A stretch of DNA of 64,000 nt, taken from NCBI RefSeq assembly GCF_965641715.1, contig NZ_OZ282453.1. The stretch is one strand, 5' to 3'. Below, piece after piece: positions 4,915 through 20,368 of this stretch. Position 1 is the first letter of the stretch. Every line of letters starts with the position of its first letter. The notes under the pieces were generated by a model, which had not been told where the DNA came from, searched no databases, and saw nothing but the letters and a program-made list of their open reading frames with translations. Position numbers and translations under genes: made by a program. Source of the stretch: Escherichia coli. GTDB lineage: Bacteria > Pseudomonadota > Gammaproteobacteria > Enterobacterales > Enterobacteriaceae.

Positions 4915-5154
4915 TTAACCATTATCGACCACGATATTGCTTTTGCGTAACAGCGGGCAATCTGTTATCCCCAAAAAACCACTTTTAGTGTGCAAGTATT
5001 GTACCGTGCTGGTGCCTCTGGCAGTCAGATAGGTACATTGCAAACCTAATCCTGCGGCATTCTCTTTGCTTCCAATCAAAACGCCATATCCGCTGAGTAA
5101 TAATCCTATCCATACCAGTGCTATCAGCATAACTGTGCGAATGATGAATCGCAT
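4915..5154 (-). CDS. yobH: Small membrane protein YobH
   Basis: 79-aa ORF MRFIIRTVMLIALVWIGLL... with signal/TM segment; matches position between kdgR and mgrB. Confidence 0.75.
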   Translation of the reverse strand: MRFIIRTVMLIALVWIGLLLSGYGVLIGSKENAAGLGLQCTYLTARGTSTVQYLHTKSGFLGITDCPLLRKSNIVVDNG

Positions 5155-5312
5155 TACAACCTCTTCTCTTTTTATGTTCGCTTAATCGTAGCGGCAATAT
5201 GCGCTGAAGCAAGCGACTCATTCCGAAAAAGCACGAATATCGACATAGTTAGGCGCTGTTTAACTAACGCATGCTAGTTTAATGACATAAGGTAGGTGAA
5301 ACGGAGATTGGA

Positions 5313-5456
5313 GTGAAAAAGTTTCGATGGGTCGTTCTGGTTGTCGTGGTGTTGGCTTGCTTGCTGCTTTGGGCGCAGGTATTCAACATGATGTGCGATC
5401 AGGATGTACAATTTTTCAGCGGAATTTGTGCCATTAACCAGTTTATCCCGTGGTGA
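5313..5456 (+). CDS. mgrB: PhoQ-inhibitory small membrane protein MgrB (47 aa, GTG start)
   Basis: Manual translation from GTG at 5313: [47 protein letters not shown]; below the 60-aa cutoff of the ORF track. Confidence 0.85.
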
Positions 5457-5530
5457 TATCATTTTTTCAGCACTAGATTTTCTTCCTCTCCAGCAGTGGT
5501 AGAATAGCGCCTCTACTCAGAGGTGGTGAA

Positions 5531-5818
5531 ATGAACGAAGTTGTAAATTCAGGCGTGATGAACATTGCGTCTTTGGTTGTATCGGTGGTGGTTCTTCTTA
5601 TCGGGCTCATCTTGTGGTTTTTTATTAATCGTGCCAGTTCTCGGACTAACGAACAGATTGAACTGCTTGAGGCGTTGCTGGATCAGCAAAAACGTCAAAA
5701 TGCACTGTTACGTCGTTTGTGCGAAGCAAACGAACCAGAGAAAGCAGATAAAAAGACCATTGAGAGTCAAAAATCGGTTGAAGACGAAGATATTATTCGC
5801 CTGGTCGCCGAACGATAA
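5531..5818 (+). CDS. yebO: Small membrane protein YebO
   Basis: 95-aa ORF with one N-terminal TM helix and charged C-terminus. Confidence 0.8.
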   Translation: MNEVVNSGVMNIASLVVSVVVLLIGLILWFFINRASSRTNEQIELLEALLDQQKRQNALLRRLCEANEPEKADKKTIESQKSVEDEDIIRLVAER

Positions 5819-6487
5819 TCCTTCCTCAATCTTGAGTAACCCCGTCGTTGAAGGGTTACTCAATTCATCCTGATTATACGCACTGTCATGGTGCAATTGC
5901 TTCAAATTAAAACTCTGGTCTGACTTCAAATAATTATCATATTATTTATTTGCGTAACGGGATATCAGAAAAAGATATTTACCTCATTAATTTATTAGGA
6001 TGTTTACATCGGATTTGTGATTAAGCGTGGTATTATTTATTAGCGAAACGTTTCTCTCTTGATTTTTTTGCTCACTCATCAATTTTTCTTATTTTAAATT
6101 TACAATCCCTTTGGGGATTGACTTCTCTTTAGGGTAATTGATAGCCGTTAACTGACTGTTTTATGAGAAAAAGTGATATAACTTTTTATTCATTGCATAG
6201 CAGAAAATGTGATATTGCACGCACTATGTAATAACTTCTCCCACTGGCCTGGAACAACTGAACTTATTGAACTATGTTAGAAACTACGCCAGTTTAAGTA
6301 TCTGCCTGAACTGGCAAGGTTAAGCACAATGATATATCGGCGCGTATTCCGTTGCATAAGTGTGCAAAAAAAGTGGAAGACGTATCGAGATTTGTGCGTC
6401 TGATCGAGACATGTTTAAAAATGGCTTGCCATAATTAACGTTGTATGTGATAACAGATTTCGGGTTAAACGAGGTACAGTTCTGTTT

Positions 6488-6631
6488 ATGTGTGGCATTT
6501 TCAGTAAAGAAGTCCTGAGTAAACACGTTGACGTTGAATACCGCTTCTCTGCCGAGCCTTATATTGGTGCCTCATGCAGTAATGTGTCAGTTTTATCTAT
6601 GTTATGCCTGCGGGCGAAGAAAACAATCTAA
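6488..6631 (+). CDS. yobF: Small protein YobF (47 aa), co-transcribed with cspC
   Basis: Manual translation [47 protein letters not shown], ends 12 bp before cspC start. Confidence 0.75.
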
Positions 6632-6643
6632 GGAATTTTTCAA

Positions 6644-6853
6644 ATGGCAAAGATTAAAGGTCAGGTTAAGTGGTTCAACGAGTCTAAAGGTTTTGGCTTC
6701 ATTACTCCTGCTGATGGCAGCAAAGATGTGTTCGTACACTTCTCCGCTATCCAGGGTAATGGCTTCAAAACTCTGGCTGAAGGTCAGAACGTTGAGTTCG
6801 AAATTCAGGACGGCCAGAAAGGTCCGGCAGCTGTTAACGTAACAGCTATCTGA
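6644..6853 (+). CDS. cspC: Cold-shock-domain protein CspC
   Basis: 69-aa [40 protein letters not shown]... with RNP1/RNP2 motifs. Confidence 0.95.
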
Positions 6854-6898
6854 TCGAATCCACTGATCTGAAGTGTGAATACGCTTCAATCTCGCTAT

Positions 6899-6925
6899 AA
6901 AGCCTCGTCGAATGCGAGGCTTTTT
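6899..6925 (+). terminator. Intrinsic terminator after cspC
   Basis: Stem AAAGCCTCG/CGAGGCTTT, 7-nt loop, followed by TTTTT. Confidence 0.8.
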
Positions 6926-7018
6926 ACTATGCTTTATCTTCGCTCCTGGCGTTCGGATATTTGCCCGCCGCGTGATTCGCGTTACACTTGCGGCCTTTAG
7001 TATCCTGCCGGAGTTGTC

Positions 7019-7828
7019 ATGTCGTTTTCCTGTCCACTTTGCCATCAGCCTCTTTCGCGTGAAAAAAACAGCTATATCTGTCCCCAACGACATCAGTTTG
7101 ATATGGCGAAAGAAGGGTATGTCAATCTGCTGCCCGTTCAGCATAAACGGTCTCGTGATCCGGGCGACAGCGCGGAAATGATGCAAGCACGCCGCGCATT
7201 CTTAGATACCGGACATTATCAGCCGCTGCGTGATGCAATTGTCGCCCAACTGCGGGAACGGCTTGATGAAAAGGCCACGGCGGTGCTGGATATTGGCTGT
7301 GGTGAAGGGTATTACACACACGCATTTGCCGATGCGTTGCCCGAAATCACCACGTTTGGTCTGGATGTTTCGAAGGTAGCGATAAAAGCGGCGGCGAAAC
7401 GCTATCCGCAGGTCACTCTTTGTGTCGCTTCCAGCCACCGTTTGCCGTTTTCCGATACCAGTATGGACGCCATAATACGTATTTACGCGCCGTGTAAAGC
7501 AGAAGAATTAGCACGAGTAGTGAAGCCCGGCGGCTGGGTCATTACTGCCACGCCGGGACCGCGACATTTGATGGAGCTGAAGGGGCTGATTTACAATGAA
7601 GTACATCTTCATGCACCTCATGCAGAACAACTGGAAGGTTTTACATTACAGCAGAGTGATGAGTTGTGTTATCCGATGCGTCTTCGCGGTGATGAAGCCG
7701 TCGCATTATTGCAGATGACGCCGTTTGCCTGGCGTGCGAAGCCAGAAGTCTGGCAAACACTGGCAGCAAAAGAAGTGTTCGACTGCCAGACGGACTTTAA
7801 TATTCACCTCTGGCAGCGTTCTTATTAA
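7019..7828 (+). CDS. rlmA: 23S rRNA m1G745 methyltransferase RlmA
   Basis: 269-aa ORF with N-terminal Cys4 zinc ribbon (CPLC...CPQRH) and SAM-binding motif DIGCGEGYY. Confidence 0.9.
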
Positions 7829-8391
7829 CCGTGGAAGTGCGTCCAGAGGATCTGGACGCCGATGCCGATCAGCACCAGCCCGCCGAGAATTTCCGCTTTT
7901 TTCCCAATAATTGAGCCGATAAAGCGACCAACCATCATCCCTAATGTCGACATAATCAAGGTTGCACAACCAATGGCCAATGCGGTCGCGATAATGTTGA
8001 CCTGAAGGAAAGCAAGACCAACACCCACAGCCATGGCATCCAGGCTGGTGGCAATCGCGGTGGTTACCAGTAGCCAGAAACCGTGCCGACGGCGCGGCTC
8101 TTCATCTTCATCATCTGCGCCACGAAAACCCTCAATAATCATTCGCCCGCCGAGGAATATCAGCAGCACAAACGCAATCCAGTGATTCCATTCAAGGACA
8201 AACCGGCTGGCTAACATGCCCATTCCCCAGCCGATCAGCGGTGTCAGGGTTTCGACGGCACCAAAAATAAGGCCGGTTCGCAATGCTTCAGAAAATTTCG
8301 GTTTATGGAGGGTGGCACCTTTACCGATTGATGCAGCAAATGCATCCATCGACATACCAAACGCAAGAAGAACAGTAGCAGTGATATTCAT
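7825..8391 (-). CDS. mntP: Manganese efflux pump MntP
   Basis: 188-aa membrane protein starting [18 protein letters not shown]...; the ORF track extends 81 codons further upstream (to 8634) across the leader and is not part of the gene. Confidence 0.9.
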
Positions 8392-8394
8392 GAC

Positions 8395-8625
8395 AACGTC
8401 CTGACCGGGGTATCCATAAAACACATCATCGCCCCCAGCAAACATGCATACATGAACAACAAGCCGCGATGGTTTTTCGCGTTCATGCAGGCATAGCGAT
8501 TGATGTGCATATGGTCTCGCCTGACTGAAAGTCTTCAGTCCGTACGTGCCACGTTTTGCAACGAGTATGTTGACACGTACATTTCCGGAATCTGGAAATT
8601 GGCTACTCCCCAAATGAGGGCGCAA
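8395..8625 (-). promoter_or_regulatory. mntP 5' leader, probable yybP-ykoY (manganese) riboswitch
   Basis: Long leader upstream of mntP; minus-strand RNA contains GGGGAGUAGCC (8601-8611 on plus strand as GGCTACTCCCC) and GAGACC (8513-8518) consistent with conserved riboswitch elements as I recall them; E. coli mntP is known to carry this riboswitch. Confidence 0.55.
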
Positions 8626-8820
8626 CCTTAACATATTTTGAGAATATAAAACAACTGTTGGAATATATTATTTTATTGCTTTGTTGATAACGATTTTCAT
8701 TTAGATTTATATATCAATGAAACGTTAAAATAAATAACAAATAAGGGAAGAGGTAATATAGCCTAAGCTATGTCTGATTATTAAAAATACACTAAACATA
8801 GCTTTGGCTAAATTAATAAC

Positions 8821-9279
8821 TCATTGAGTTGAAACGAGAAGTTTATAAATTCTTTCCAGATCGTCGATATTTCGAACGCGGATTAACAGCCGACGCTGTT
8901 CTAATTGCATCACCAACACGCCATCTTCCGACAAGTTCATCGCTTTGATTCGGCTATATTCAATCCAGACATTGGCGAAGAAAAAACCTTTTTGTTTAAA
9001 GATGATCTTCGGAACGCGGATCCAGAATATATAAAAACCCATCAGAGCCAGTGCGCTTAATAACCATGTCGTTATTAACGCACCATGATTCGTGACGTTG
9101 TTATAGATAAGAATGACAATCAATCCGACGAAGATAACGCTATCGATGCGACCACGCCGGAGCAAAGGAATTGCCAGCAGGGTGGGGCCGTTACGGCGGG
9201 GCATGATGAACTGATCGTAGATCGCGAAGGCCAGGAGTGCGGCGATGAAAAGAATCAGTACCAGGTCCGTGATTGTCAT
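8821..9279 (-). CDS. yobD: Inner-membrane protein YobD (DUF986)
   Basis: 152-aa hydrophobic ORF in the expected position between mntP and manZ. Confidence 0.8.
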
Positions 9280-9333
9280 TAATCCTCCAGATAAAAAAAC
9301 GGGGCCAAAAGGCCCCGGTAGTGTACAACAGTC

Positions 9334-10194
9334 TTACAGTCCCAGCAGGCCGCAAGCGTAACCAGCGATACCGATGACGAAGAAGCCAACGATGATCCAC
9401 AGCGGGTTAACTTTTTTGCGCAGTAGCCACATACAAGCAAAGGTCAGCAGCAGTGGTACCAGGCCTGGCATTAACTGGTCCAGAATAGTCTGGACAGTAG
9501 TAACGTGTTCTTTGCCCGTCTGGTCAGTAATGCGAGAGACAACCAGCGGGATGTTGACATGTGTCCACTTGTTAACCAATGCCCCCATGACAAACAGGCC
9601 GAGGATAGACGCCCCTTCCGTCAGTTTTTGCAGGAAGCCACCACCCATATCTTTAACGATATCGATACCTTTGGAGTAACCATACGCTACGCCGTAGTAA
9701 CGGGTTGCCAGACGCACCAGGTTAAACAGGATGAAGAACAGCAGCGGACCTAACAGGCTGCCGCTCATCGCGATACCGGCACCCAGTGCTGCAAATACCG
9801 GACGTACGGTTCCCCAGAAGATCGGGTCGCCTACACCAGCCAGCGGCCCCATCAAACCGACTTTGATACCGTTGATAGCACCGTCGTCGATCTCTGCGCC
9901 ATTAGCACGCTGTTCTTCCAGCGCCAGGGTTACGCCGAGAATCGGCGCAGCCACGAACGGCTGGGTGTTAAAGAACTCCAGGTGACGGCGAATAGCTTGT
10001 TTACGAGCTTCGTTGTTCTCAGGGTAGAGGCGACGAATTGCCGGTACCATAGAGAAGCAGAAACCCAGTGCCTGCATACGTTCGAAGTTCCATGAACCCT
10101 GGAAGAGGTTAGAACGCAGGAAGACGCCACGAATATCACTTTGAGTGAGTTTTTTCTCGGTGGTAGTTTGAGTTGTATCAACCATTTCGCTCAC
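9334..10194 (-). CDS. manZ: Mannose PTS EIID component ManZ
   Basis: 286-aa membrane ORF; last gene of the manXYZ operon, 4 bp after manY. Confidence 0.9.
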   Translation of the reverse strand: MSEMVDTTQTTTEKKLTQSDIRGVFLRSNLFQGSWNFERMQALGFCFSMVPAIRRLYPENNEARKQAIRRHLEFFNTQPFVAAPILGVTLALEEQRANGAEIDDGAINGIKVGLMGPLAGVGDPIFWGTVRPVFAALGAGIAMSGSLLGPLLFFILFNLVRLATRYYGVAYGYSKGIDIVKDMGGGFLQKLTEGASILGLFVMGALVNKWTHVNIPLVVSRITDQTGKEHVTTVQTILDQLMPGLVPLLLTFACMWLLRKKVNPLWIIVGFFVIGIAGYACGLLGL

Positions 10195-10197
10195 CTG

Positions 10198-10998
10198 TTA
10201 GTCCAGTTCGTTATCGAGATCGTTGTTACCAGCTGCCTGAGTAGGCGCACCGGCTACGCGGTTGTATTTCGGGCTAAGTTGGATGTAGAGCACTGCCATA
10301 ACAGTACCAATCACACCCAGAGCAACCAGGTTAAAGTTGGTGAATGCTGCGGTTACGAAGCCGAGGTAGAAGAACGGCATCAGGTAGCCAGCACGCATCA
10401 TGTTGATAACCATCGCATAACCAACCACCACGATCATGCCACCGGCGATATTCAGACCATTGGTCACCACTTCCGGAATCGCATTCAGCATGTTCTGTAC
10501 TTCGCTGGTACCAACAGACAGCGCAACGATGACGGCCGGAATAGCCACACGCATTGCTTGCAGGAACAGAGAAGAAACGTGGATCCAGGAAATCGCTGTC
10601 AGGTTGCCGTTATCAGCAGCCTTATCCGCAGCGTGCTGGAAAGCAACGGTAATAGTACGAACGATGATGGTCAGTACCTGGCCCGCAGCGGCCAGAGGGA
10701 TTGCCAGTGCGATACCTGCACCAATGCTCTGATGACCTGCGATAACCAGAATGGTAGAAATGATAGAAGCCAGAGCGGCGTCAGGCGCAACTGCAGCACC
10801 GATGTTCATCCAGCCCAGCGCGATCATTTCCAGCGTACCACCGATAATAATACCGGTTTTCATATCCCCAAGAACGATACCCACCAGGGTACACGCGATT
10901 AGCGGACGGTGAAACTGAAATTCATCGAGGATTGATCCCATACCTGCGATACAGGCTACGATAAATACCAGCACAATTTGAAGAGTGGTAATCTCCAT
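10198..10998 (-). CDS. manY: Mannose PTS EIIC component ManY
   Basis: 266-aa polytopic membrane ORF. Confidence 0.9.
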   Translation of the reverse strand: MEITTLQIVLVFIVACIAGMGSILDEFQFHRPLIACTLVGIVLGDMKTGIIIGGTLEMIALGWMNIGAAVAPDAALASIISTILVIAGHQSIGAGIALAIPLAAAGQVLTIIVRTITVAFQHAADKAADNGNLTAISWIHVSSLFLQAMRVAIPAVIVALSVGTSEVQNMLNAIPEVVTNGLNIAGGMIVVVGYAMVINMMRAGYLMPFFYLGFVTAAFTNFNLVALGVIGTVMAVLYIQLSPKYNRVAGAPTQAAGNNDLDNELD

Positions 10999-11060
10999 TG
11001 TACTTCTCCTGTTTACGTAAGACTAAAGTGTGAAAACTGAGTGATAATCAACACAATACG

Positions 11061-12032
11061 TTACTTATCGATTTTGCTGATCAGATCCATCATTTTCAGT
11101 TTCGGATCGGTGGAAACCTTACGGACTTCCAGCTCAATACCGCGTGCATTCAGTTTTTTGAACGCCTCGATATCTTTTTCATCAACCGAAACCGCGTTAT
11201 TCACCTGGGTTTTACCCTGACGGAATGCCATACCACCGACGTTAACAGAGGTGATTTTCACGCCGCCTTCAACGAGACGCTCTACATCTGTTGGGTTGGT
11301 AAATAACAGCATTACACGTTCGCCAGCATATTTCGGGTTGTTGTAGACGCGAATCATTTTGGCAACATCAACTACGTGTGCTGTTACGCCCGGAGGTGCA
11401 ACCTGGGTGAGCAGTGTCTTACGAACGGTATCCGCAGCCACTTCATCACTAACAACAATAATACGGGAGACATTGGTTTCTTTGGTCCAGCGGGTGGCGA
11501 CCTGACCGTGAATCAGACGGTCGTCGATACGCGCAAGGCCAATAACCATGTAGTCGTTTGGCCCCATTGGTTTTGCCGGAGTTGGAGCCGCTTTGGGTGC
11601 TGCGGCAGCGGGTGCTGGCGCGGCTTTTTCAACCGGTTTGGCTTTCAGCGCTTTCACGCCTTCACGGCCTGTTTCTACTGCCAGCGCAACCAGTTCATCA
11701 AAGCTTGGGTCATCATCACGGGCCATTAACGTTTCCACGAGCATTGGAATGTTAACGCCTGCAATGACTTCATAATGCTCTTTGTCGACGACAATGCGGC
11801 TGGCAGCATTGAACGGGCTGCCTCCCCATGTATCAACGAGAAACAGCACGCCTTTAGTGGTGTCGAGTTTTGCCAACTGAGCGTTGTACTTTTCAATCAG
11901 CGTTTCGGCATTTTCACCTGGAACGAAATCGATCCAGCCGACGTTTTCCTGCTCGCCTAACAGCATTTCTGCCGTTTTAAGCAACTGCTCTGCAGCCCAA
12001 CCATGTGTGCCTATAACAATAGCAATGGTCAC
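11061..12032 (-). CDS. manX: Mannose PTS EIIAB component ManX
   Basis: 323-aa ORF with two domains joined by an Ala/Pro-rich linker (KAKPVEKAAPAPAAAAPKAAPTPAKP). Confidence 0.9.
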   Translation of the reverse strand: MTIAIVIGTHGWAAEQLLKTAEMLLGEQENVGWIDFVPGENAETLIEKYNAQLAKLDTTKGVLFLVDTWGGSPFNAASRIVVDKEHYEVIAGVNIPMLVETLMARDDDPSFDELVALAVETGREGVKALKAKPVEKAAPAPAAAAPKAAPTPAKPMGPNDYMVIGLARIDDRLIHGQVATRWTKETNVSRIIVVSDEVAADTVRKTLLTQVAPPGVTAHVVDVAKMIRVYNNPKYAGERVMLLFTNPTDVERLVEGGVKITSVNVGGMAFRQGKTQVNNAVSVDEKDIEAFKKLNARGIELEVRKVSTDPKLKMMDLISKIDK

Positions 12033-12494
12033 TTGCTACCTCCTTTATTATCGTTAACACCTCAACGTGCCAGATGTATTTTTGAATCGTCGTCCACAAT
12101 CGAATCGATTCAGATAAGGGCTACAACCAAAAACCCCTGCGTTTCGCGATTTATTTTAGATATCGAAAAAATTATTTTATGTGATGAAGATCCGTAATTT
12201 AACTTTCGATTAGCAGAAATTTCGAAAGGTAAAATATCCTTGTCACATTCGTTTGCAAAGGAAGGTAAATCTTTGCCAAATCAGAGGCGTCTCTGATATG
12301 TTTAACTCCCGTTTAACAACCATGGAGTATAGGGCAGTAGCCCGCAGTATGGATCGTCACCGACGTCATTTCAGCATCAGGCCTTTTAACGCCTGCCTTT
12401 CTGGCACTCTATGCCGCACCTTTCGTTTGCATTTTGTCGTTACGCCTGCATTATTTCTGGCGTCGAATAGCTATTCCTTAAGCAGGAGCTTGTC

Positions 12495-14051
12495 ATGGAA
12501 TTCTTAATGGACCCCTCAATTTGGGCGGGGCTACTCACGCTTGTTGTTCTCGAAATTGTGCTGGGTATCGATAACCTGGTCTTCATCGCCATTCTTGCTG
12601 ACAAACTGCCGCCAAAACAACGCGATAAAGCGCGTTTGCTGGGGTTATCACTGGCGCTGATTATGCGTCTGGGGCTGCTGTCGCTGATTTCATGGATGGT
12701 CACGCTGACCAAACCGCTATTTACCGTCATGGATTTCTCCTTCTCCGGACGCGACCTGATTATGTTGTTCGGGGGGATATTCTTGCTGTTCAAAGCAACA
12801 ACCGAACTGCATGAACGGTTGGAAAACCGTGATCATGATTCCGGCCACGGTAAAGGCTACGCCAGTTTCTGGGTAGTCGTCACACAGATTGTCATCCTTG
12901 ACGCCGTCTTCTCGTTGGATGCGGTAATTACTGCAGTAGGGATGGTTAACCATCTGCCGGTGATGATGGCGGCGGTAGTGATTGCGATGGCGGTTATGTT
13001 GCTGGCATCCAAACCGCTGACGCGATTTGTTAACCAGCACCCCACGGTGGTGGTGCTCTGTCTGAGCTTCCTGTTAATGATTGGTCTGAGTCTGGTGGCA
13101 GAAGGTTTCGGTTTCCACATTCCGAAAGGTTACCTGTATGCCGCGATTGGCTTCTCGATCATCATCGAAGTGTTTAACCAGATTGCGCGTCGCAACTTTA
13201 TTCGTCACCAGTCGACTTTGCCGCTGCGAGCGCGTACTGCCGATGCCATCCTGCGTTTGATGGGCGGGAAACGTCAGGCCAATGTTCAGCACGATGCCGA
13301 TAACCCGATGCCGATGCCGATCCCGGAAGGTGCATTTGCCGAAGAAGAACGTTACATGATTAACGGCGTACTGACGCTGGCGTCGCGTTCTCTGCGCGGG
13401 ATCATGACGCCGCGCGGTGAAATAAGCTGGGTTGACGCTAATCTCGGGGTAGATGAAATCCGCGAGCAGCTGCTCTCCTCACCGCACAGCCTGTTCCCGG
13501 TATGTCGCGGTGAACTGGATGAAATCATCGGAATCGTACGTGCTAAAGAACTGCTGGTGGCGCTGGAAGAGGGCGTTGATGTGGCGGCGATTGCTTCGGC
13601 GTCTCCGGCGATTATCGTCCCTGAAACCCTCGATCCGATCAACCTGCTGGGCGTGCTGCGTCGTGCTCGCGGGAGCTTTGTTATCGTGACCAACGAGTTT
13701 GGTGTGGTACAAGGCTTGGTCACGCCGCTGGATGTGCTGGAAGCCATTGCGGGTGAATTCCCGGACGCTGACGAAACGCCGGAGATCATTACTGATGGTG
13801 ACGGCTGGCTGGTAAAAGGCGGTACAGATTTGCATGCCTTGCAGCAGGCGCTTGATGTTGAGCACCTTGCCGATGACGATGATATCGCGACGGTCGCGGG
13901 CCTCGTGATCTCGGCAAATGGTCACATTCCCCGTGTGGGCGATGTGATTGATGTAGGGCCACTGCATATCACCATCATTGAAGCCAATGATTATCGTGTT
14001 GATCTGGTTCGCATTGTTAAAGAGCAACCGGCGCACGATGAAGATGAGTAA
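12495..14051 (+). CDS. yoaE: TerC-family membrane protein fused to CBS/CorC domains, YoaE
   Basis: 518-aa ORF: N-terminal TerC-like integral membrane domain, C-terminal CBS pair plus CorC-like domain. Confidence 0.85.
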
Positions 14052-14054
14052 GCG

Positions 14055-15653
14055 TTAACGTAACGGCATAATGGGCGTGATATGTCCATTATGCCGGGCG
14101 GGCGGCGGTTGGCTGCCCGCCAGCCATTTGGGAAAATCACGTAGCGGCATCGGCTGTGCGTACAAATACCCTTGCAAAATATGCACGCCATGACGGCGCA
14201 AATATTTCGCCTGTTCTTGCGTTTCCACACCCTCCGCCACCAGTTCAATATTCAGTCTTTGCCCCAGTGCGATGATGATATCGGTCACCGTCGAGTTAAC
14301 CGCGTCAGAACCTATAGCTGCGGTAAATGACTTATCAATTTTCAGCACGTCAGGACGTAATGTTTCAAGCCAGGAAAACGAGCTGTTGCCGGTGCCGAAG
14401 TCATCAATCGCCAGTTTGACGTTTTTACGATGCAGCTCGCGGGCAATCCGATAATCAACATCCAGTAAGGCATCGCGTTCGGTGATTTCGAGGATCAGTT
14501 GCTGAATCGGGTGAGCACTAAACCAGTACTGATTGAGATCTTTTATCAGCACACCACGGCGAAAATGGCTGGGTGCGACGTTAATGCCAACATGAAACTG
14601 ACTACTCATTGGGAAAACATGGCGCTGACGAATGGTTTCTGCCATCACATAGCGGGTCAGTGGCACAATTAAATGATGTTCTTCCGCGATAGGAATAAAC
14701 ACATCCGGTGAAATCCAGCCCTGACGCGGATTGTTCCAGCGCAGCAAAATCTCTACACCAATACATTGCTGGCTGCGCGCATTAAGCAAAGGCTGACAGA
14801 ACAATTCGAACTCATGTTGCGCCAGGCCCAGATTGATTTCGCGGGAAAAGCTCATCCGGTAAGCGGTCGCCAGCCAGGCGATGTAGCCCACCAGTAAACT
14901 TAGCAGCACCGCCAGCGGTAATTGTGTTGGAAGATAGTGCCATGCCAGCGCCGTAGCCCCCGGACCATTAACGTTAATGGTAAAAGGAAAGCGTTGCGAA
15001 GAAACCTGATAGTTTTCATTGTCTTCAGGTTGCGGAAGGGAATCTACCAGCCCATTACCATAGAGCAAATGCCGTTTGTCCACCGTCAGGCTGGCGCTAC
15101 TGATTTGCGGCAGTTGTGGCTCAAGGAGCATTGCCGTCAGTAAGTCGATGTTAATCATCTCCATGACCCCAGCATTGCTACTGCCCGCTGCAGGCGTCCA
15201 TTGAATCAAAACCGGACTGCCTTTAATCAGGGCACGGTCGATCGTCAGGCGTAAAAGTGGTTGCGGTGCAGGAAGTTCAGCCAGAATGTCCACGACGGGC
15301 ACATTGCGATAACCAAAAATGCTGGAGCAATAGAGTGTGCCGTCTTGCACCAGGCCAATGGATCGCACAGTTTGGAGTTTTGCCGCCTGTTTACGTAATG
15401 GCAAATGGGCGACAGAGCAGGGCAGACCAATCAGCGGAAGCAAGACTTCGCTACCTGCCTGTAGGGGAAGCAGTACTTTATCTAATTCCTCTACAGCATG
15501 ATTGGCGAATTGTACTACCCGTTGTTGATTTAAGTTACGCTGTGAAATAAATCGCACGCTCAGGGTCGAAGCGAGCGTAACGAGTGCGCAAATCGTACAA
15601 ACAATCATTCGATTACGGCGATAGGTTTTAATGATCCGTTGTGCTTTTTGCAT
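14055..15653 (-). CDS. pdeD: c-di-GMP phosphodiesterase PdeD (YoaD), CSS-EAL type
   Basis: Membrane-anchored periplasmic domain followed by EAL domain; start chosen at MQKAQRIIKTYRR (532 aa) from recollection, the track ORF begins 10 codons earlier. Confidence 0.8.
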   Translation of the reverse strand: MQKAQRIIKTYRRNRMIVCTICALVTLASTLSVRFISQRNLNQQRVVQFANHAVEELDKVLLPLQAGSEVLLPLIGLPCSVAHLPLRKQAAKLQTVRSIGLVQDGTLYCSSIFGYRNVPVVDILAELPAPQPLLRLTIDRALIKGSPVLIQWTPAAGSSNAGVMEMINIDLLTAMLLEPQLPQISSASLTVDKRHLLYGNGLVDSLPQPEDNENYQVSSQRFPFTINVNGPGATALAWHYLPTQLPLAVLLSLLVGYIAWLATAYRMSFSREINLGLAQHEFELFCQPLLNARSQQCIGVEILLRWNNPRQGWISPDVFIPIAEEHHLIVPLTRYVMAETIRQRHVFPMSSQFHVGINVAPSHFRRGVLIKDLNQYWFSAHPIQQLILEITERDALLDVDYRIARELHRKNVKLAIDDFGTGNSSFSWLETLRPDVLKIDKSFTAAIGSDAVNSTVTDIIIALGQRLNIELVAEGVETQEQAKYLRRHGVHILQGYLYAQPMPLRDFPKWLAGSQPPPARHNGHITPIMPLR

Positions 15654-15783
15654 GCGGGCCACCCTGTAAGCGTATGGCGACAAACGCCTGACGCAACAGT
15701 GGAAGTGTAGTGGGGAATATTACAGCAGACGAGAAAGCGGGGATAAATTCGCCCATCCGTTGCAGATGGGCGAGTAAGAAGTA

Positions 15784-17148
15784 TTAGTCACACTGGACTT
15801 TGATTGCCAGACCACCGCGTGAGGTTTCGCGGTATTTGGCGTTCATGTCCTTACCGGTTTCGTACATCGTTTCGATGACCTTATCCAGCGAGACGCGCGG
15901 TGCACTGGTGCGGCGCAGAGCCATCCGTGCGGCGTTAATCGCCTTCACAGAGGCAATGGCATTACGCTCAATGCACGGCACCTGAACCTGCCCTGCAACC
16001 GGGTCGCAGGTTAAACCAAGGTTGTGTTCCATGCCAATTTCCGCCGCCACGCAAACCTGTTCCGGGCTACCGCCCAGCAGTTCTGCAAGACCCGCAGCAG
16101 CCATTGAACAGGCAACACCCACTTCGCCCTGGCAACCAACTTCCGCACCGGAAATAGAGGCGTTCATTTTATACAATGCACCAATCGCGCCCGCTGCCAT
16201 AAAGTAACGGGTATAGATGTCCGGGCTGACCGATTCAATAAAGTGGTCATAGTAAGCCAGCACTGCCGGAACGATACCGCAGGCACCGTTGGTTGGCGCA
16301 GTTACCACACGACCACCGGCGGCGTTTTCTTCGTTAACTGCCAGCGCAAACATGTTTACCCAGTCAATGACATTCATCGGATCGTTAGACAGTTTATCGC
16401 TGGAAACCATCATCCGGCGCAGGGCAGACGCACGACGTGGCACGCGCAGCGGGCCTGGCAGTACACCTTCGGTGTTCATCCCGCGATCGATACATGCCTG
16501 CATGGTTTGCCAGACATGCGCGAAATACTCGTCGATCTCTTTCTTGCTGTGCAGCGCCAGTTCGTTCTGCATAGCGAGACCAGACAGCGAATAGCCGGTT
16601 TCATTACAGTACGCGAGCAGTTCGGTGGCAGATTTGAACGGATACGGCACGCTCACTTCGTTGGCAGCATCCTGACCAAAGTGTTCTTCATCGACGATAA
16701 AACCGCCGCCGATGGAATAATAAGTTTTGCTGTAGACGACTTCATCGCCGTTATAGGCGTGGATTTGCATACCGTTTTCATGCAGCGGCAGGTTGCCGTT
16801 ATGAAAACGCATCCCGTTGTTGCGCGGGAAATCCACTTCATGCCGTCCCTGTGCCAGCAGCAGACGTTCGCGCACTTCTACGTCGCGAATAAAACCGGGA
16901 ATACTGTCGATATCCACGGTGGCAGGTTCGTTACCTGCAAGACCCATAATAATGGCGATATCGGTGTGGTGGCCTTTACCCGTCAGCGACAGTGAACCAT
17001 AAACGTCCACGGCAACGCGAGTAACGCTATCCAGTAAGCCTTTTTCGACCAGATCATCGACGAACTGTTTACCCGCCTTCATAGGCCCTACGGTATGGGA
17101 AGATGAGGGACCAATCCCCACCTTAAACATGTCGAATAGACTAATCAC
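15784..17148 (-). CDS. sdaA: L-serine dehydratase 1
   Basis: 454-aa [29 protein letters not shown]..., Fe-S serine dehydratase family. Confidence 0.95.
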
Positions 17149-17331
17149 GATAATACTCCTGACAAGGTGACTGGACTTCCAGTAACGAACTAATAACAGC
17201 GCATAGTGTAAGAGGGAACGCGGCGACTGGCTTAACTATTCACATGAATTAAACTAATCAAAAACCGCGATTTAACTAATATTGCGATGATTGTCTCAAG
17301 TAGTGTTTTGTAGATGTAAAGATAAGTATAG

Positions 17332-17910
17332 TCAGGGTTTCACACCAATTTGCAGCGCCAGCTCACGAATTATGCCTGCGGTCATTCCCCATACAAAATA
17401 CTGTTCGTACCAGGACAGCCATACCCGATGTGAATCGCCACGGCGGTAGATATCTAAAGGGTGATAACGACCCAGATGTAATGCCTGGGCGAGCGGCATT
17501 TCAAACACCGCCGAGACTTCATCTTCACTGGCGCGATACGGCAGATCGGGCGGGATAATGCCGACCACTGGGGTTACCTGATAGCCAGTTACGCTATCGA
17601 CGGGCGGCAGCACGCCGATAACTTCAACGGCGGAAGGCGGTATAGCGACCTCTTCTTCAGCTTCGCGCAGCGCGGCGGCGATAACTGATGCGTCCGTGTC
17701 ATCGACTGCACCTCCAGGGAATGCCACTTGTCCAGCGTGTTTACGCAGATGAATTGAACGCTGAGTCAGCAACAACCCCGGTTGCGGTCGACGGACGATG
17801 GGGATTAACACGGCAGCCTGACGATGATTTAGGGTTTCCCGGTTAATTTGCGGGCGCAAAAGTTGAAAGCGCGATAAAAAATCATCAAGCGTCAGGCTAC
17901 GGTATTCCAC
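17332..17910 (-). CDS. nudL: Nudix hydrolase NudL (YeaB)
   Basis: 192-aa ORF with Nudix box ([25 protein letters not shown]); 3 bp downstream of pabB. Confidence 0.85.
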
Positions 17911-17913
17911 GTC

Positions 17914-19275
17914 TTACTTCTCCAGTTGGCGTAATATCTTATTAACTTTATCAAAAGTTTCCTGATATTCCGCTTCTTCCTGGCTATCGGCGACAATTCC
18001 ACCGCCCGCAGAGCAGAAAATTTGTCCGTTAATGGCAGTCAGCGTGCGGATAGTAATGCTGGTATCCATGTTGCCGCAAAAGCTCAAATAGCCAATGCTG
18101 CCGCACCAGGCATTACGTCGCTGCGGTTCCAGTTCGTCGATAATTTCCATAGCCCGTACTTTCGGAGCCCCGGTTATTGAGCCACCAGGAAAAGCTGCGC
18201 GCAGCAGATCGCTGGCGTGTAACTGTTCTGGTAGTTGCGCCGTTATGGTGCTGACCAGATGATGCACGGCAGGGAAGGGTTCCACCACGAACAGCTCTGG
18301 TACTTTTACCGAACCTGCTACGGCAACACGACCGATATCATTACGCATTAAATCGACAATCATCAGATTTTCGGCACGATCTTTCGCTGAGTTCGCCAGT
18401 TTTTCCGCTTGTTTGCTATCTTCCTGAGGATCGGGCAGGCGTGGTAGCGTGCCTTTAATCGGGCGGGTCTGGATTTCACAATTATCACAAAGAATAAACC
18501 GCTCTGGCGAAAGGCTTAAAATTGCACCCTGTTCAAGACGTAAAAAAGCGCTAAATGGCGCGCGGTTGGCCTGATTAAGCTGAAGGAATGCCTGCCATTC
18601 ATCGCCAGAATAGGTCGCATGAAAACGCTGGGCGAGATTCACCTGATAGCAATCACCGCTGTGCAGATATTCCTGTACCTGGCGAAATTTTTCGCCGTAC
18701 TGCTCGCGGGTCATATTGGATTGCCAGTCGGAAGTGAGCGTGAAATCTTCCTGCGGCGAGAATTGCTGGCTTTCCAGCCAGGCCCGACGGGCATTGACAT
18801 CATTATGACTCAGCAAAGAAACTGTATGACGCTGGTGGTCGACAATGAGCGCCCAATCGTAGATACCCACTGCCATATCCGGCAGAACGATATCTTGTTC
18901 CGCAATTTCTGGCAGTAACTCAAAACGGCGGCCCAGATCGTAGCCAAACAACCCCAGTGCGCCGCCCTGAAATGGCAAATCTTCGTTATGCGTTGGGCGA
19001 ATGTCTGCGCGATCCAGCACCTGCTGGAGCACCTGTAGCGGGTCATCAGTGGTCGTTGTGCGTTTTTCGCTTTCACTAACAACGGTTTCTTTACCTAAAG
19101 TGGTTAAAGTGCAAATCGGATCGGCGACCACAATATCAAAGCGGCTATACGGATGATCGGCATAGCCGGAGTGTAAAAGCATCGCCCACGGCAGGTGGCT
19201 TAAGCGGGAGAAATAAAATTCAGCGGCGTCCTGACGCCAGGGTAAAGTAATCACAACGGGAGATAACGTCTTCAT
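17914..19275 (-). CDS. pabB: Aminodeoxychorismate synthase component I
   Basis: 453-aa ORF, anthranilate-synthase-like chorismate-binding domain. Confidence 0.9.
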   Translation of the reverse strand: MKTLSPVVITLPWRQDAAEFYFSRLSHLPWAMLLHSGYADHPYSRFDIVVADPICTLTTLGKETVVSESEKRTTTTDDPLQVLQQVLDRADIRPTHNEDLPFQGGALGLFGYDLGRRFELLPEIAEQDIVLPDMAVGIYDWALIVDHQRHTVSLLSHNDVNARRAWLESQQFSPQEDFTLTSDWQSNMTREQYGEKFRQVQEYLHSGDCYQVNLAQRFHATYSGDEWQAFLQLNQANRAPFSAFLRLEQGAILSLSPERFILCDNCEIQTRPIKGTLPRLPDPQEDSKQAEKLANSAKDRAENLMIVDLMRNDIGRVAVAGSVKVPELFVVEPFPAVHHLVSTITAQLPEQLHASDLLRAAFPGGSITGAPKVRAMEIIDELEPQRRNAWCGSIGYLSFCGNMDTSITIRTLTAINGQIFCSAGGGIVADSQEEAEYQETFDKVNKILRQLEK

Positions 19276-19348
19276 CAGTCCTGACTCTACTGGCTATGTG
19301 CCGGGTAGCATGAAATAATTAGCGCCAACAATTTAGCAGGAGTTAACA

Positions 19349-19528
19349 ATGTTTGCAGGTTTACCTTCACTCACCCATGAACAGCAGCAAAAAGCTGTCG
19401 AGCGGATCCAGGAACTGATGGCACAAGGGATGAGCAGCGGCCAGGCAATCGCGCTGGTGGCAGAAGAGCTGCGTGCCAACCACTCCGGCGAGCGAATCGT
19501 GGCGCGTTTTGAGGATGAAGACGAGTAA
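19349..19528 (+). CDS. yoaH: Small protein YoaH (UPF0181, 59 aa)
   Basis: Manual translation [59 protein letters not shown]; not in the ORF track because shorter than 60 aa. Confidence 0.75.
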
Positions 19529-19647
19529 CACACTAATCCGTATCGATTTCGTTATAGAAGCCGATGATCATTTGATTGTGAGAAAAAGGACGCTTTTTAT
19601 ATGTGATTAAAAGCGTCCTGACCCATTTATGCTGATATAAATTTAAC

Positions 19648-19947
19648 TCAGACCAGTGCTTTTAGTTCTTCCTGCATATATGTTGAAAAGTATTCAGGAT
19701 TTTTAATCACAGAGCGTTCACCTGTCTCCATTTTTTTTGCCCATCCAACCATTTTTTCCGTGAACCCAGGGTTCCAGCCTTCCTGGTCAGCTCGCGCCGT
19801 AATATCAGCGGCACTCGCGGGTACTCCCAGTTCTTTTAAATATTTAAAGATTCCCTTCGCCGTGCTTTCATTCATCGAACTTGGTGTTGGCGCTGATACA
19901 TCCATGGCACCAATGAAATCCAGGGCTTTATCTATTACAGCAGGCAT
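19648..19947 (-). CDS. yoaC: DUF1889 protein YoaC
   Basis: Track ORF 19648..20007; start set at MPAVIDKALDF (99 aa) from recollection; start uncertain. Confidence 0.7.
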   Translation of the reverse strand: MPAVIDKALDFIGAMDVSAPTPSSMNESTAKGIFKYLKELGVPASAADITARADQEGWNPGFTEKMVGWAKKMETGERSVIKNPEYFSTYMQEELKALV

Positions 19948-20368
19948 ATTCTTATCCTTAAAATTAACCATGTTATCGATAAGGCTATATATGACCTTAA
20001 TTTGCATCTAATATCAAAGGGATTATAACGATATGGCACGAGTTAACCTGTTGACATTCAGGTGTTTTAAAGGTAGCAGCTCATGGTGTGTTATCCAGTA
20101 AGATGGAGAAAATTAACGGTCAGTCCGCACGCTATAACCAGATTGTTCAGCTAAGAAAGAAAACCAGAGTTGCTAATCAAAGGGCGAACACAACGGCATG
20201 GTTATGTTTATTTATATAGTTAGTTTTATAGATAAAATTGAAATTATAAAAATAAATAATGAATTAGCAGAAGCATCAACAGTAATATCTTATTCTCTGG
20301 TCGATTTATGTAAAACCGACCAGTATTATCGATAAATTATCGTCTGACTTATTTTGCTTCGATAAAGC

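Follow-up and report, generated by a model that had tools for sequence, protein, structure and literature searches.

The intergenic region between manX and yoaE of Escherichia coli raises the question of how a divergently transcribed gene of the TerC family is controlled, since genes of this family often follow yybP-ykoY riboswitches. The window analyzed here, meaning the whole stretch of 64,000 nucleotides with positions counted from its first letter, is E. coli chromosome: it was matched at 99% identity or more in 5423 of 5426 complete genomes, with manX, yoaL and yoaE annotated there. Gene calls in the window placed manX on the minus strand (11061..12032; GTG start codon) and yoaE on the plus strand (12495..14051). 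The gap between them (12033-12494) is exactly 462 bp. The first-pass annotation had these coordinates and gene calls right, and its description of a large divergent manX/yoaE control region holds. The interval is partly coding, as it carries most of the annotated small ORF yoaL (12349-12507), which ends with a 13-nt overlap past the yoaE ATG. Analysis of the YoaE protein with Pfam identified TerC (PF03741), CBS (PF00571) and CorC_HlyC (PF03471) domains, confirming an earlier call of a TerC-CBS-CorC fusion. YoaE has been renamed MgpA in Salmonella and guards against excess Mg2+ (PMC12421838). YoaE/MgpA is also required for survival in egg white and for virulence.

The comparisons below are based on a genome scan, of which the best 80 loci were used (at least 85% YoaE identity); the matches listed in a protein search were close relatives as well. 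These loci provided 78 distinct Enterobacteriaceae leaders, which form approximately 33 sequence clusters at 70% identity; all come from one family, and counts across them are partly inflated by shared ancestry. The conserved leader block has no second genomic copy and was single-copy in 5423 genomes.

No credible riboswitch match in the yoaE leader

The first-pass annotation had suggested that the yoaE leader might hold a riboswitch, for manganese or of another kind, and pointed to the mntP manganese riboswitch 4 kb away. The mntP riboswitch is real and lies approximately 3.4-3.9 kb from the leader, at 8523..8619 on the minus strand. It matched RF00080 with 40.1 bits (E = 2e-9), under the Rfam gathering score of 45, and a separate E-value scan of 8300-8900 was used to recover it as a positive control. 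No match to RF00080 or to any other credible Rfam family was found at E ≤ 10 in 11950-12600, and the suggestion is therefore unsupported. The four Rfam matches in that segment were noise of the snoRNA/SECIS type (E 2.3-7.5). At the gathering score, only a cspA thermoregulator was identified in 5000-20000, and a search of eight orthologous loci from other genera with RF00080 and other Rfam models revealed nothing relevant.

The yoaE leader resembles the yybP-ykoY class (RF00080; mntP, alx) in preceding the gene of a TerC-domain membrane protein and in containing the AGUAGCC 7-mer. In contrast to that class, it has no covariance-model match and is translated, and the four-helix aptamer with a conserved GGGGAGUAG-type loop was not found in it. 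The AGTAGCC match reported previously is present at 12336-12342, where it occupies the loop and stem of a 4-bp hairpin (H1, below). The same 7-mer occurs eight times in the window, compared with 3.35 ± 1.77 times in shuffled sequence, with one copy inside the mntP riboswitch; on this account AGTAGCC alone carries no evidential weight. No terminator-like expression platform was detected in the E. coli, Salmonella, Enterobacter and Klebsiella loci, and the minimum free energy of the whole leader was no better than that of shuffles (z = -0.04). The TerC domain of YoaE scored 75.2 bits against the NCBIfam model R_switched_YkoY (cut-off 138.5) and 72.3 bits against R_switched_YjbE (cut-off 134.8), and is a member of neither riboswitch-linked subfamily. 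The first-pass annotation had tied its suggestion both to a covariance-model match and to metal-dependent regulation of yoaE; the former is lacking, while the latter stands, with Mg2+ rather than Mn2+ as the metal (PMC12421838). For this Mg2+ response, the PhoP box on the promoter and the yoaL uORF described below offer explanations other than a ligand-binding RNA.

The yoaE promoter carries a PhoP box and a candidate CpxR box

A promoter scan predicted a sigma-70 promoter for yoaL and yoaE at 12273..12302 on the plus strand, consisting of a -35 element (TTGCCA), an 18-nt spacer and an extended -10 element (TGaTATGTT). We infer a transcription start at approximately 12309-12311, so that transcription from about 12309 would produce a leader of about 186 nt. 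The same TTGCCA-18-TATGTT arrangement with its TG was predicted in Salmonella arizonae, and the TG, TA and TGTT positions were invariant or at least 90% conserved in the 78 species.

Just 5' of the -35 element, a candidate CpxR box (GCAAA-ggaag-GTAAA; 12255..12269, plus strand) was read from the sequence and is conserved in the alignment. Compared with the GTAAA-N5-GTAAA pattern it reads GCAAA-N5-GTAAA, a match made by eye. In Salmonella, CpxR activates yoaE with a 5-fold dependence, and the CpxR-P DNase I footprint (GCAAAGAGATGT) is the equivalent of window positions 12247-12258 (PMC6952189). CpxR bound at 12255-12269 would activate yoaE, which fits induction by alkaline conditions and envelope stress.

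A PhoP box (TGTTTA-actcc-CGTTTA; 12299..12315, plus strand) lies across the -10 hexamer and the predicted start site (+1). The direct repeat (T/G)GTTTA-N5-(T/G)GTTTA is present there as TGTTTAactccCGTTTA, with one mismatch; the pattern matched four times in the window compared with 1.04 expected, and the box is conserved across the alignment. In Shigella grown in LB, deletion of phoPQ increased yoaE expression 7.14-fold by array and 3.18-fold by qRT-PCR, and an identical site was bound by PhoP-P in EMSA and DNase I footprinting experiments (PMC5775216). The Shigella footprint is numbered -107 to -83, whereas the box lies at -196 to -180 from the yoaE ATG here, and it is the sequence alone that is identical. 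PhoP-P on 12299-12315 would cover the -10 and +1 positions and repress yoaE, and on this model yoaE would be off in low Mg2+ and de-repressed in high Mg2+. PhoP repression can explain the reported induction by high Mg2+, in which a reporter with the native upstream region responded to 10 mM Mg2+ at neutral or alkaline pH (PMC12421838). For both regulators, binding and the direction of their effect are taken from the literature.

This arrangement resembles PhoP-repressed and CpxR-activated promoters such as cpxP, with a PhoP direct repeat on the core promoter and a candidate GTAAA-type CpxR box 5' of the -35 element, and both proteins bind in vitro. Most characterized PhoP boxes replace the -35 element and activate; in contrast, the box at yoaE covers -10/+1 and the gene is up in the phoPQ mutant. 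Pairing of the leader with the PhoP-dependent sRNA MgrR was also considered and rejected, the duplex energy being matched or beaten by 20% of shuffles.

On the opposite side of the interval, the 5' UTR of manX is 115 nt long (PMC3089445) and would occupy 12033..12147 on the minus strand, ending at the GTG at 12032. The manX transcription start calculated from this length would lie at approximately 12147, and a -10-like TAAAAT was read from the sequence at 12153-12158 (minus strand). A candidate CRP site (TGTGATGAAGATCCGT; 12180..12195) is centered at about -40.5 from this start, as judged from the sequence and its inverted repeats, and is flanked by A/T-rich palindromes of the Mlc/NagC operator type (12152-12168 and 12220-12236); inverted repeats I1, I3, I6 and I7 underlie these candidates. 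We take them to be the CRP, Mlc and NagC sites of established knowledge (Plumbridge 1998, as cited in PMC3089445). A CRP consensus scan was uninformative, with 217 matches compared with 236 expected by chance.

yoaL is kept open to the yoaE start and its peptide is hypervariable

The small upstream ORF yoaL (RefSeq b4751; 12349..12507, plus strand) comprises 52 codons (MDRHRRHF...SRSLSWNS) and matches Pfam family PF22867 with 138.1 bits, against a cut-off of 27. Its UAA stop codon (12505-12507) overlaps codons 4-5 of yoaE and has A12507 in common with the AUG of yoaE Met5. Published work shows that YoaL is made, as tagged protein is detectable (PMC6001520), and that replacing the yoaL start with a stop codon strongly lowers yoaE-lacZ expression (bioRxiv 10.1101/511675). 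This is the same locus that Weaver et al. (2019) described among coupled leader uORFs (yoaL-yoaE, pssL-pssA); in these, the 5' UTR carries a small ORF that runs into the beginning of the next gene, whose expression drops after a start-to-stop change in the ORF. Our analysis adds the conservation picture, the UAAUG overlap with Met5 and an unmasked yoaE ribosome site; most else at the locus has been published already.

The comparative picture of the 78 leaders is new here, and revealed a hypervariable peptide with a kept stop position. In all 78, yoaL was open from a conserved AUG to within a few bases of the yoaE ATG, with a length of 40-55 codons; relative to that ATG, it ended at +13 in 76 leaders, at +10 in one and 2 nt upstream in one. 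The yoaL frame was free of stops before the yoaE ATG in 77/78 leaders, compared with 15/78 and 0/78 for the other two frames, and shuffled yoaL interiors were open in just 37% of cases. Column identity at the DNA level fell from 0.96 over codons 1-6 to 0.56 over codons 13-38, with YoaL hypervariable in both sequence and length past residue 7. The N-terminal MDRHRR is conserved, with codon changes that are nearly all synonymous. The C-terminal SRSxSWNS is conserved as well, and is dictated by the yoaE Shine-Dalgarno (SD) sequence and start. The yoaE ATG, GAA and Met5 codons were invariant (78/78), and the Leu4 codon (TTA in 70, CTA in four, TTG in two and CTG in one) in each case retains UAA or UGA in the yoaL frame. 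No yoaL-like overlapping uORF was found at the paralog yegH, whose product starts MEWIADPS, without Met5.

The yoaL start module and local hairpins are conserved

The yoaL initiation module (12323..12351, plus strand) consists of an SD sequence ((U/A)GGAG; 12323-12327), 4 nt, hairpin H1, 5 nt and the AUG (12349-12351). H1 pairs GGGC (12332-12335) with GCCC (12340-12343) around a loop. This geometry was constant in 76 of 77 parsable leaders, with indels just in the loop, which has 3 or 4 nt. H1 folds at -7.3 kcal/mol, with a local window z of -2.07 over the 78 species. Its stem is nearly invariant and its covariation is thin: the fourth pair is C-G in 73 leaders, U-G in four and U-A in one. The GGAG and the AUG are 21 nt apart, and the two spacers of 4 and 5 nt sum to a normal SD-AUG distance. 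No alternative start codon was found near the SD, and the Klebsiella clade has an in-frame stop just upstream. The module thus has the features of a split ribosome-binding site, namely an SD separated from the start codon by more than 15 nt, a stable hairpin between the two and flanking spacers that together have a normal length, and resembles those of phage T4 genes 38 and 25 and the distant SDs of the polyamine modulon, where more than 20 nt and a hairpin also separate the SD from the start. H1 probably brings the yoaL SD into range of the AUG.

Codons 3-6 of yoaL could form a mini-hairpin (CGUC-ACC-GACG; 12355..12365, plus strand; -2.3 kcal/mol), with 98.4% of cells able to pair. U12357 (Arg3, CGU) and A12363 (Arg5, CGA) pair in this stem and are invariant in 78/78 leaders even though both are 4-fold sites; unlike them, yoaE Pro7 and Ser8 vary. 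With no covariation, the mini-hairpin is a candidate stem and unproven.

Three further hairpins were identified inside the hypervariable part of yoaL on the plus strand: H2 (12378-12382/12391-12395), H3 (12402-12406/12412-12416) and H4 (12443-12446/12459-12462). Together they span 12378..12462, with C/U-rich linkers between them. RNAalifold recovered no more than H1 and fragments from a global MAFFT alignment, since such an alignment does not match up the variable middle by structure; pair counts and local z-scores were used instead. On an alignment made from sequence alone, 84.7% of cells were counted as paired, compared with 31-43% when partners were slid. Of 32 pairs, 16 had changed on both sides, a level matched in 1 of 500 shuffles. 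Species-wide local z-scores were -2.10, -2.15 and -1.66 for H2, H3 and H4, compared with +0.28 for a linker. A conserved long-range helix hiding the yoaL SD was considered and rejected, since the predicted partners differ between species.

Simple coupling does not explain why the nucleotides of yoaL codons 1-6, including their 4-fold sites, are extremely conserved, nor why hairpins H2-H4 are conserved.

Translation of yoaE appears to depend on yoaL passage

The yoaE translation start (12484..12509, plus strand) comprises an SD sequence (AGGAG; 12484-12488), a 6-nt spacer and the AUG (12495-12497), followed by the invariant in-frame AUG of Met5 (12507-12509) in the stop/start overlap UAAUG. This region is not unusually structured (local z = -0.12). 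Its predicted unpaired probability was 0.44, rising to 0.48 with the yoaL region held open, compared with 0.36 for shuffled interiors. Unmasking by yoaL ribosomes was rejected as the main mechanism on these values (0.44 against 0.36 shuffled, and the local z), and an accessible yoaE start would favor ribosome delivery or polarity over unmasking.

We consider it probable that the interval is a divergent manX/yoaE control region in which the yoaE half is run by proteins and ribosomes and not by a ligand-binding RNA. In the mechanism that we infer, ribosomes would load on the translated leader at yoaL, using the SD 21 nt from its AUG, read 52 codons through the three conserved hairpins and terminate at the UAA 10 nt past the yoaE AUG, overlapping Met5. 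Translation of yoaE would depend on this passage, with terminating ribosomes most likely re-initiating at the yoaE start. The translated leader may also shield C/U-rich RNA from Rho or from decay.

With a site as accessible as folding suggests, a good SD and a 6-nt spacer, direct initiation at yoaE might be expected to stand in for coupling, and what prevents this is not obvious. If the site is accessible, there must be a further contribution, for instance from Rho polarity, decay of the mRNA or a leader-bound factor.

Alternative roles for yoaL

The main role of yoaL translation could instead be to block Rho-dependent termination in a rut-like leader: in the absence of ribosomes, Rho would load on the C/U-rich linkers and stop transcription before or early in yoaE. 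The composition is suggestive, with C exceeding G and U exceeding A over approximately 140 nt (12340-12479; GC skew -0.19 to -0.27, AT skew -0.2 to -0.56), a mean yoaL content of 30% C compared with 21% G, and linkers that are unstructured. The unmasked yoaE site points the same way, since the loss of yoaE expression when yoaL is blocked then needs another cause. The mgtA and corA leaders, which belong to the same physiology, use Rho. On the other hand, the stable hairpins H1-H4 occupy much of the leader and are unfavorable for Rho loading, and the accessible part of the supplementary tables of E. coli 3'-end mapping (Term-seq) has no entry for yoaE or yoaL. Our literature search found nothing linking yoaE to Rho. 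On balance, we consider this role unlikely.

Comparison with mgtL-mgtA and corL-corA revealed shared features, namely a short translated ORF in a long leader with conserved hairpins, upstream of a Mg2+ transport gene in a PhoP/Mg2+ circuit. In the mgtL and corL leaders, control involves alternative stem-loops, sensor codons that are Pro-rich or acidic, and Rho-dependent termination, and the uORFs stop well before the structural gene, whereas yoaL overlaps the yoaE start. The yoaE product is an exporter induced rather than shut off by high Mg2+, and neither alternative pairings nor terminators were found in its leader. An attenuator of the trp or mgtL type was not found: each hairpin is a local, independent unit, and the SD lacks a conserved alternative partner. 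There are no runs of Pro, Trp or His codons in yoaL to serve as sensors, just MDRHRR. An attenuator based on an intrinsic terminator was rejected, with no sites in the E. coli, Salmonella, Enterobacter and Klebsiella loci.

A second possibility is that yoaL senses Mg2+ or another cation, so that its initiation or early elongation varies with cytoplasmic Mg2+ or polyamines and sets the translation of yoaE. Such a role was proposed by Iwadate and Slauch, and their idea could be extended to a route through the distant SD and hairpin, in the style of the polyamine modulon, or via the invariant codons for MDRHRR. In favor of this, the start module hardly varies, even at its 4-fold sites, and has indels in the loop alone; its SD lies 21 nt from the AUG. 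In addition, YoaE showed the strongest depletion of any protein in a tgt mutant lacking queuosine (log2 -1.87; PMC9508795), and three of the first seven yoaL codons encode Asp or His. Against this, the PhoP box already predicts a Mg2+ response, H1 with its predicted stability (-7.3 kcal/mol) is not obviously tunable by cations, and a search for conserved alternative partners of the SD found none. The IRD motifs of MgtL are acidic or proline-containing, and MDRHRR is unlike them. A sensing role therefore appears quite unlikely. More specifically, the almost invariant 45-nt start module (from the SD through the GGGC/GCCC hairpin to AUG-GAY-CGU-CAC-CGA-CGY) might be a dedicated sensor of an intracellular signal that, by way of the overlapping uORF, sets YoaE/MgpA levels independently of PhoP and CpxR, which we regard as a long shot. 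Candidate signals would be free Mg2+, polyamines, pH or the decoding speed of Asp, His and Arg codons, the last of which fits the loss of YoaE in the queuosine-less mutant.

YoaL might also act as a small protein, one that partners or regulates YoaE for example, with the overlap merely ensuring co-expression. The detection of tagged protein (PMC6001520), the existence of a Pfam family and the conserved N-terminal MDRHRR with its nearly all synonymous changes are compatible with this. The residues past position 7 are hypervariable across lengths of 40-55 aa (DNA column identity 0.56), the conserved C-terminus is set by the yoaE SD and start, and the middle keeps RNA hairpins and not residues; these observations make a functional peptide very improbable.

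Direct control of yoaE by a yybP-ykoY or other metal riboswitch can practically be dismissed: the response of yoaE to Mg2+, the shared 7-mer and the company of TerC genes speak for it, and they are outweighed by the missing RF00080 match in the leader and its eight orthologs, a 7-mer confined to a 4-bp hairpin, the sub-threshold TerC scores, the shuffle-like folding energy, the missing expression platform and a translated leader with a hypervariable middle.

Implications for yoaE regulation

The probable control of yoaE by proteins and translating ribosomes is an ordinary finding that is largely explained, and it introduces no new class of element. It removes the tempting explanation of yoaE by a manganese riboswitch of the TerC type. 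The published PhoP box on the promoter predicts the reported induction by high Mg2+, and was not considered in the 2025 paper. If the start module did prove to be a sensor, it would represent a new kind of cation-responsive translational leader. Judging from the aligned leaders, what evolution appears to have kept at yoaL is that it is translated and where it stops, together with the start module and three hairpins, and not the peptide, and this narrows the signals to which yoaL may respond.

Organization of the manX/yoaE interval

Gene calling placed manX at 11061..12032 (minus strand, GTG start) and yoaE at 12495..14051 (plus strand), which reproduces exactly the 462-bp gap at 12033-12494 described in the first-pass annotation. 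The TerC-CorC fusion with CBS domains proposed there for YoaE was borne out by TerC, CBS and CorC_HlyC domain matches. An 801-bp query across the interval matched 5423 of 5426 complete E. coli genomes with at least 99% identity, identifying the window as E. coli chromosome; manX, yoaL and yoaE are annotated under that match, and E. coli has one copy of the conserved block. Part of the interval is coding: RefSeq annotates there the 52-codon ORF yoaL (12349-12507, plus strand; b4751 in MG1655), which overlaps the yoaE ATG by 13 nt and whose product matches Pfam PF22867 "YoaL" (138 bits). According to a 2019 preprint, the originally annotated yoaL start lies 13 codons upstream of the true start; the 69-aa and 52-aa YoaL versions differ by 17 codons, compared with 13 in the preprint. 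At one compared locus (L001, strain 4/2-1, 7156-8750), pdeD, the gene after yoaE, carries a frameshift in its annotation.

The yoaE leader does not match a riboswitch

The first-pass annotation had raised a Mn2+ riboswitch in the yoaE leader, citing an AGTAGCC match and the nearby mntP riboswitch. A permissive Rfam scan of 11950-12600 revealed no RF00080; its four matches, to snoRNA, SECIS and scaRNA families, were all at noise level (E 2.3-7.5). Eight orthologous loci, taken from other genera, were also without a match. As a positive control, an E-value scan of 8300-8900 recovered the Mn2+ aptamer of mntP (8523..8619(-), E=2e-9), including its GGGGAGTAGCC loop; because the aptamer's score of 40.1 bits is below the Rfam gathering score of 45, scanning the window at the default gathering threshold does not detect it. 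The window holds 8 copies of AGTAGCC; the one at 12336-12342 falls within a 4-bp hairpin, in its loop and 3' arm. The YoaE TerC domain scored far under the cut-offs of the riboswitch-linked NCBIfam subfamilies YkoY and YjbE. Given the lack of Rfam matches with a working control, no terminator-like platform in E. coli, Salmonella, Enterobacter or Klebsiella, and a whole-leader folding energy no better than that of shuffled sequence (z=-0.04), the riboswitch was rejected.

A gathering-score scan of 5000-20000 identified the cspA thermoregulator only (RF01766, 6468-6928 (+), 136.7 bits, E=1.2e-35), which is presumably a leader belonging to a csp gene adjoining rlmA. Between the yobD end and the mntP leader lies a 20-nt inverted repeat (8754-8815; TAATATAGCCTAAGCTATGT / ACATAGCTTTGGCTAAATTA, 90% complementary, arms 22 nt apart) that gave spurious miRNA-precursor matches on both strands. 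Its CATAGC half-sites resemble MntR operators, and the repeat region also contains a PhoP-box-like match at 8782-8798(-).

Promoters and regulators

In the manX half, we take TAAAAT (12153-12158) to be the -10 element, TGTGA-N6-TCCGT a CRP-type site centred at about -40.5 from the manX start, and the palindromes to be Mlc/NagC-type. Matches in a CRP consensus scan were not above chance. The published manX 5' UTR of 115 nt (PMC3089445) puts the transcription start near 12147.

A promoter scan identified the yoaE promoter at 12273-12302 (+) (TTGCCA, 18-nt spacer, TGaTATGTT); the same promoter was found in Salmonella arizonae, and its key bases are conserved across 78 species. Just 5' of it lies a candidate CpxR box (GCAAA-N5-GTAAA, 12255-12269); in Salmonella, CpxR-P footprints on the adjoining bases and activates yoaE ~5-fold in egg white (PMC6952189). 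One E. coli genome, that of strain GZ04-0086 (NZ_CP042336.1), carries an IS1A inserted in the intergenic region at window ~12259; its match is broken at query position 226/227, inside the candidate CpxR box and just 5' of the yoaE -35.

A PhoP box (TGTTTAactccCGTTTA, 12299-12315) overlaps the yoaE -10 and predicted +1, where a repressor would be expected to sit. PhoP-P binds an identical site in Shigella, and yoaE was higher in a phoPQ mutant by 7.14-fold (array) and 3.18-fold (qRT-PCR) under the header "mutant/WT" (PMC5775216); PhoP therefore represses yoaE, although PMC6952189 describes Shigella PhoP as "upregulating" it (original table mutant/WT = 7.14). [quoted passage not shown] That study calls mgpA regulation unclear and suggests YoaL as sensor; it does not discuss PhoP in the context of Mg2+ induction. 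The PhoP box is likely to explain this induction, and de-repression of a PhoP-repressed promoter would be the simplest account. Pairing of MgrR with the leader was not significant.

Translation of yoaL is conserved, its peptide is not

The 80 best matches in a scan of a genome collection with YoaE were Enterobacteriaceae loci (YoaE 85-98% identical to the query), and they carried 78 distinct leaders. In every leader the ORF opens at a conserved ATGGAYCGTCAYCGACG and spans 40-55 codons. In 76/78 the stop is a shared UAA/UGA located 10 nt into yoaE; the two exceptions end 3 nt earlier and 2 nt before the yoaE ATG, respectively. No stop precedes the yoaE ATG in the yoaL frame in 77/78 leaders, compared with 15/78 and 0/78 for the other frames, and shuffled interiors stay open 37% of the time. 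Since the frame is open across ~33 clusters of the middle region (70% identity), chance maintenance is excluded. Unlike the frame, the YoaL peptide is not conserved: column identity was 0.96 for codons 1-6 (MDRHRR) and 0.87 across the yoaE SD-AUG stretch, but 0.56 for codons 13-38, and the conserved SRSxSWNS at the C-terminus is no more than the SD and start of yoaE in another frame.

The stop is preserved within yoaE, where Leu4 is TTA in 70/78 leaders and CTA, TTG or CTG in the rest, all of which still give the yoaL frame a stop. All 78 leaders have Met5, producing UAAUG with the yoaL stop. The paralog YegH begins MEWIADPS, with Ala at the Met5 position and no overlapping uORF. Within 12495-12509, yoaE has both Met1 and Met5 as invariant in-frame AUGs, the second overlapping the yoaL stop; judged from this sequence, the true or coupled YoaE start could be Met5. 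One locus (L027, CACSKA010000003.1), labelled "Chryseobacterium sp. 18061", has an Enterobacteriaceae-type yoaE (88% identity) and a Klebsiella-like yoaL leader, and its assembly is probably contaminated or mislabelled.

An invariant start module and internal hairpins

The yoaL AUG is preceded by an SD ((A/U)GGAG), 4 nt, GGGC, a loop, GCCC and 5 nt. This order is constant in 76/77 parsable leaders, with length changes confined to the loop (3 or 4 nt). The hairpin (H1) has a predicted energy of -7.3 kcal/mol, and one stem pair varies (C-G 73, U-G 4, U-A 1). Only one start codon is usable, 21 nt away from the SD, and the Klebsiella clade has an in-frame stop between the two. This layout resembles a hairpin-bridged ribosome-binding site of the kind in phage T4 genes 38 and 25. 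Codons 3-6 may form a 4-bp mini-hairpin that pairs the 4-fold site of Arg3 (CGU) with that of Arg5 (CGA, 78/78); both sites are invariant, whereas the 4-fold sites in yoaE codons 7-8 vary freely.

Three further hairpins (H2, H3 and H4) recur within the hypervariable part of yoaL. On an alignment built from sequence only, pairing holds in 84.7% of cells compared with 31-43% for slid partners, and 16/32 pairs have changes on both sides, a level reached by 1/500 shuffles. As a caveat on these counts, the E. coli row supplied the structure, and the sequences are related to one another. Local-window folding energies provided an independent test, with z-scores across all species of -2.07 (H1), -2.10 (H2), -2.15 (H3) and -1.66 (H4), compared with +0.28 for a linker and -0.12 for the yoaE start region.

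Coupling of yoaL to yoaE

Weaver et al. found that yoaE-lacZ fell strongly once the yoaL start had been changed to a stop codon. The stop/start geometry (AUG, 10 nt, UAA, plus UAAUG with Met5) favours re-initiation, in which terminating yoaL ribosomes would re-initiate at the yoaE start. The leader RNA at 12340-12479 is markedly C>G and U>A, so Rho-dependent polarity could also contribute when the leader goes untranslated. Unmasking of a hidden yoaE ribosome site was unsupported by folding: its unpaired probability of 0.44 rose only to 0.48 with the yoaL region held single-stranded, and shuffled interiors masked it more (0.36). No conserved pairing partner was found for the yoaL SD.

Q-modified tRNAs decode Asp and His codons, which make up 3/7 of the yoaL opening M-D-R-H-R-R-H (12349-12369). 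In a queuosine-deficient E. coli tgt mutant, no protein is more strongly depleted than YoaE (log2 -1.87; PMC9508795), a loss that may be linked through decoding of the yoaL uORF.

Taken together, these data confirm the first observation on this region and do not support its riboswitch interpretation; the region is a known protein-regulated promoter followed by a known translationally coupled leader uORF. That translation and stop position are kept and the peptide is not is new but incremental, as are the invariant start module, three conserved hairpins, the accessible yoaE start and the PhoP box as a likely cause of Mg2+ induction. A sensing role for the invariant yoaL start module is conceivable but unlikely.
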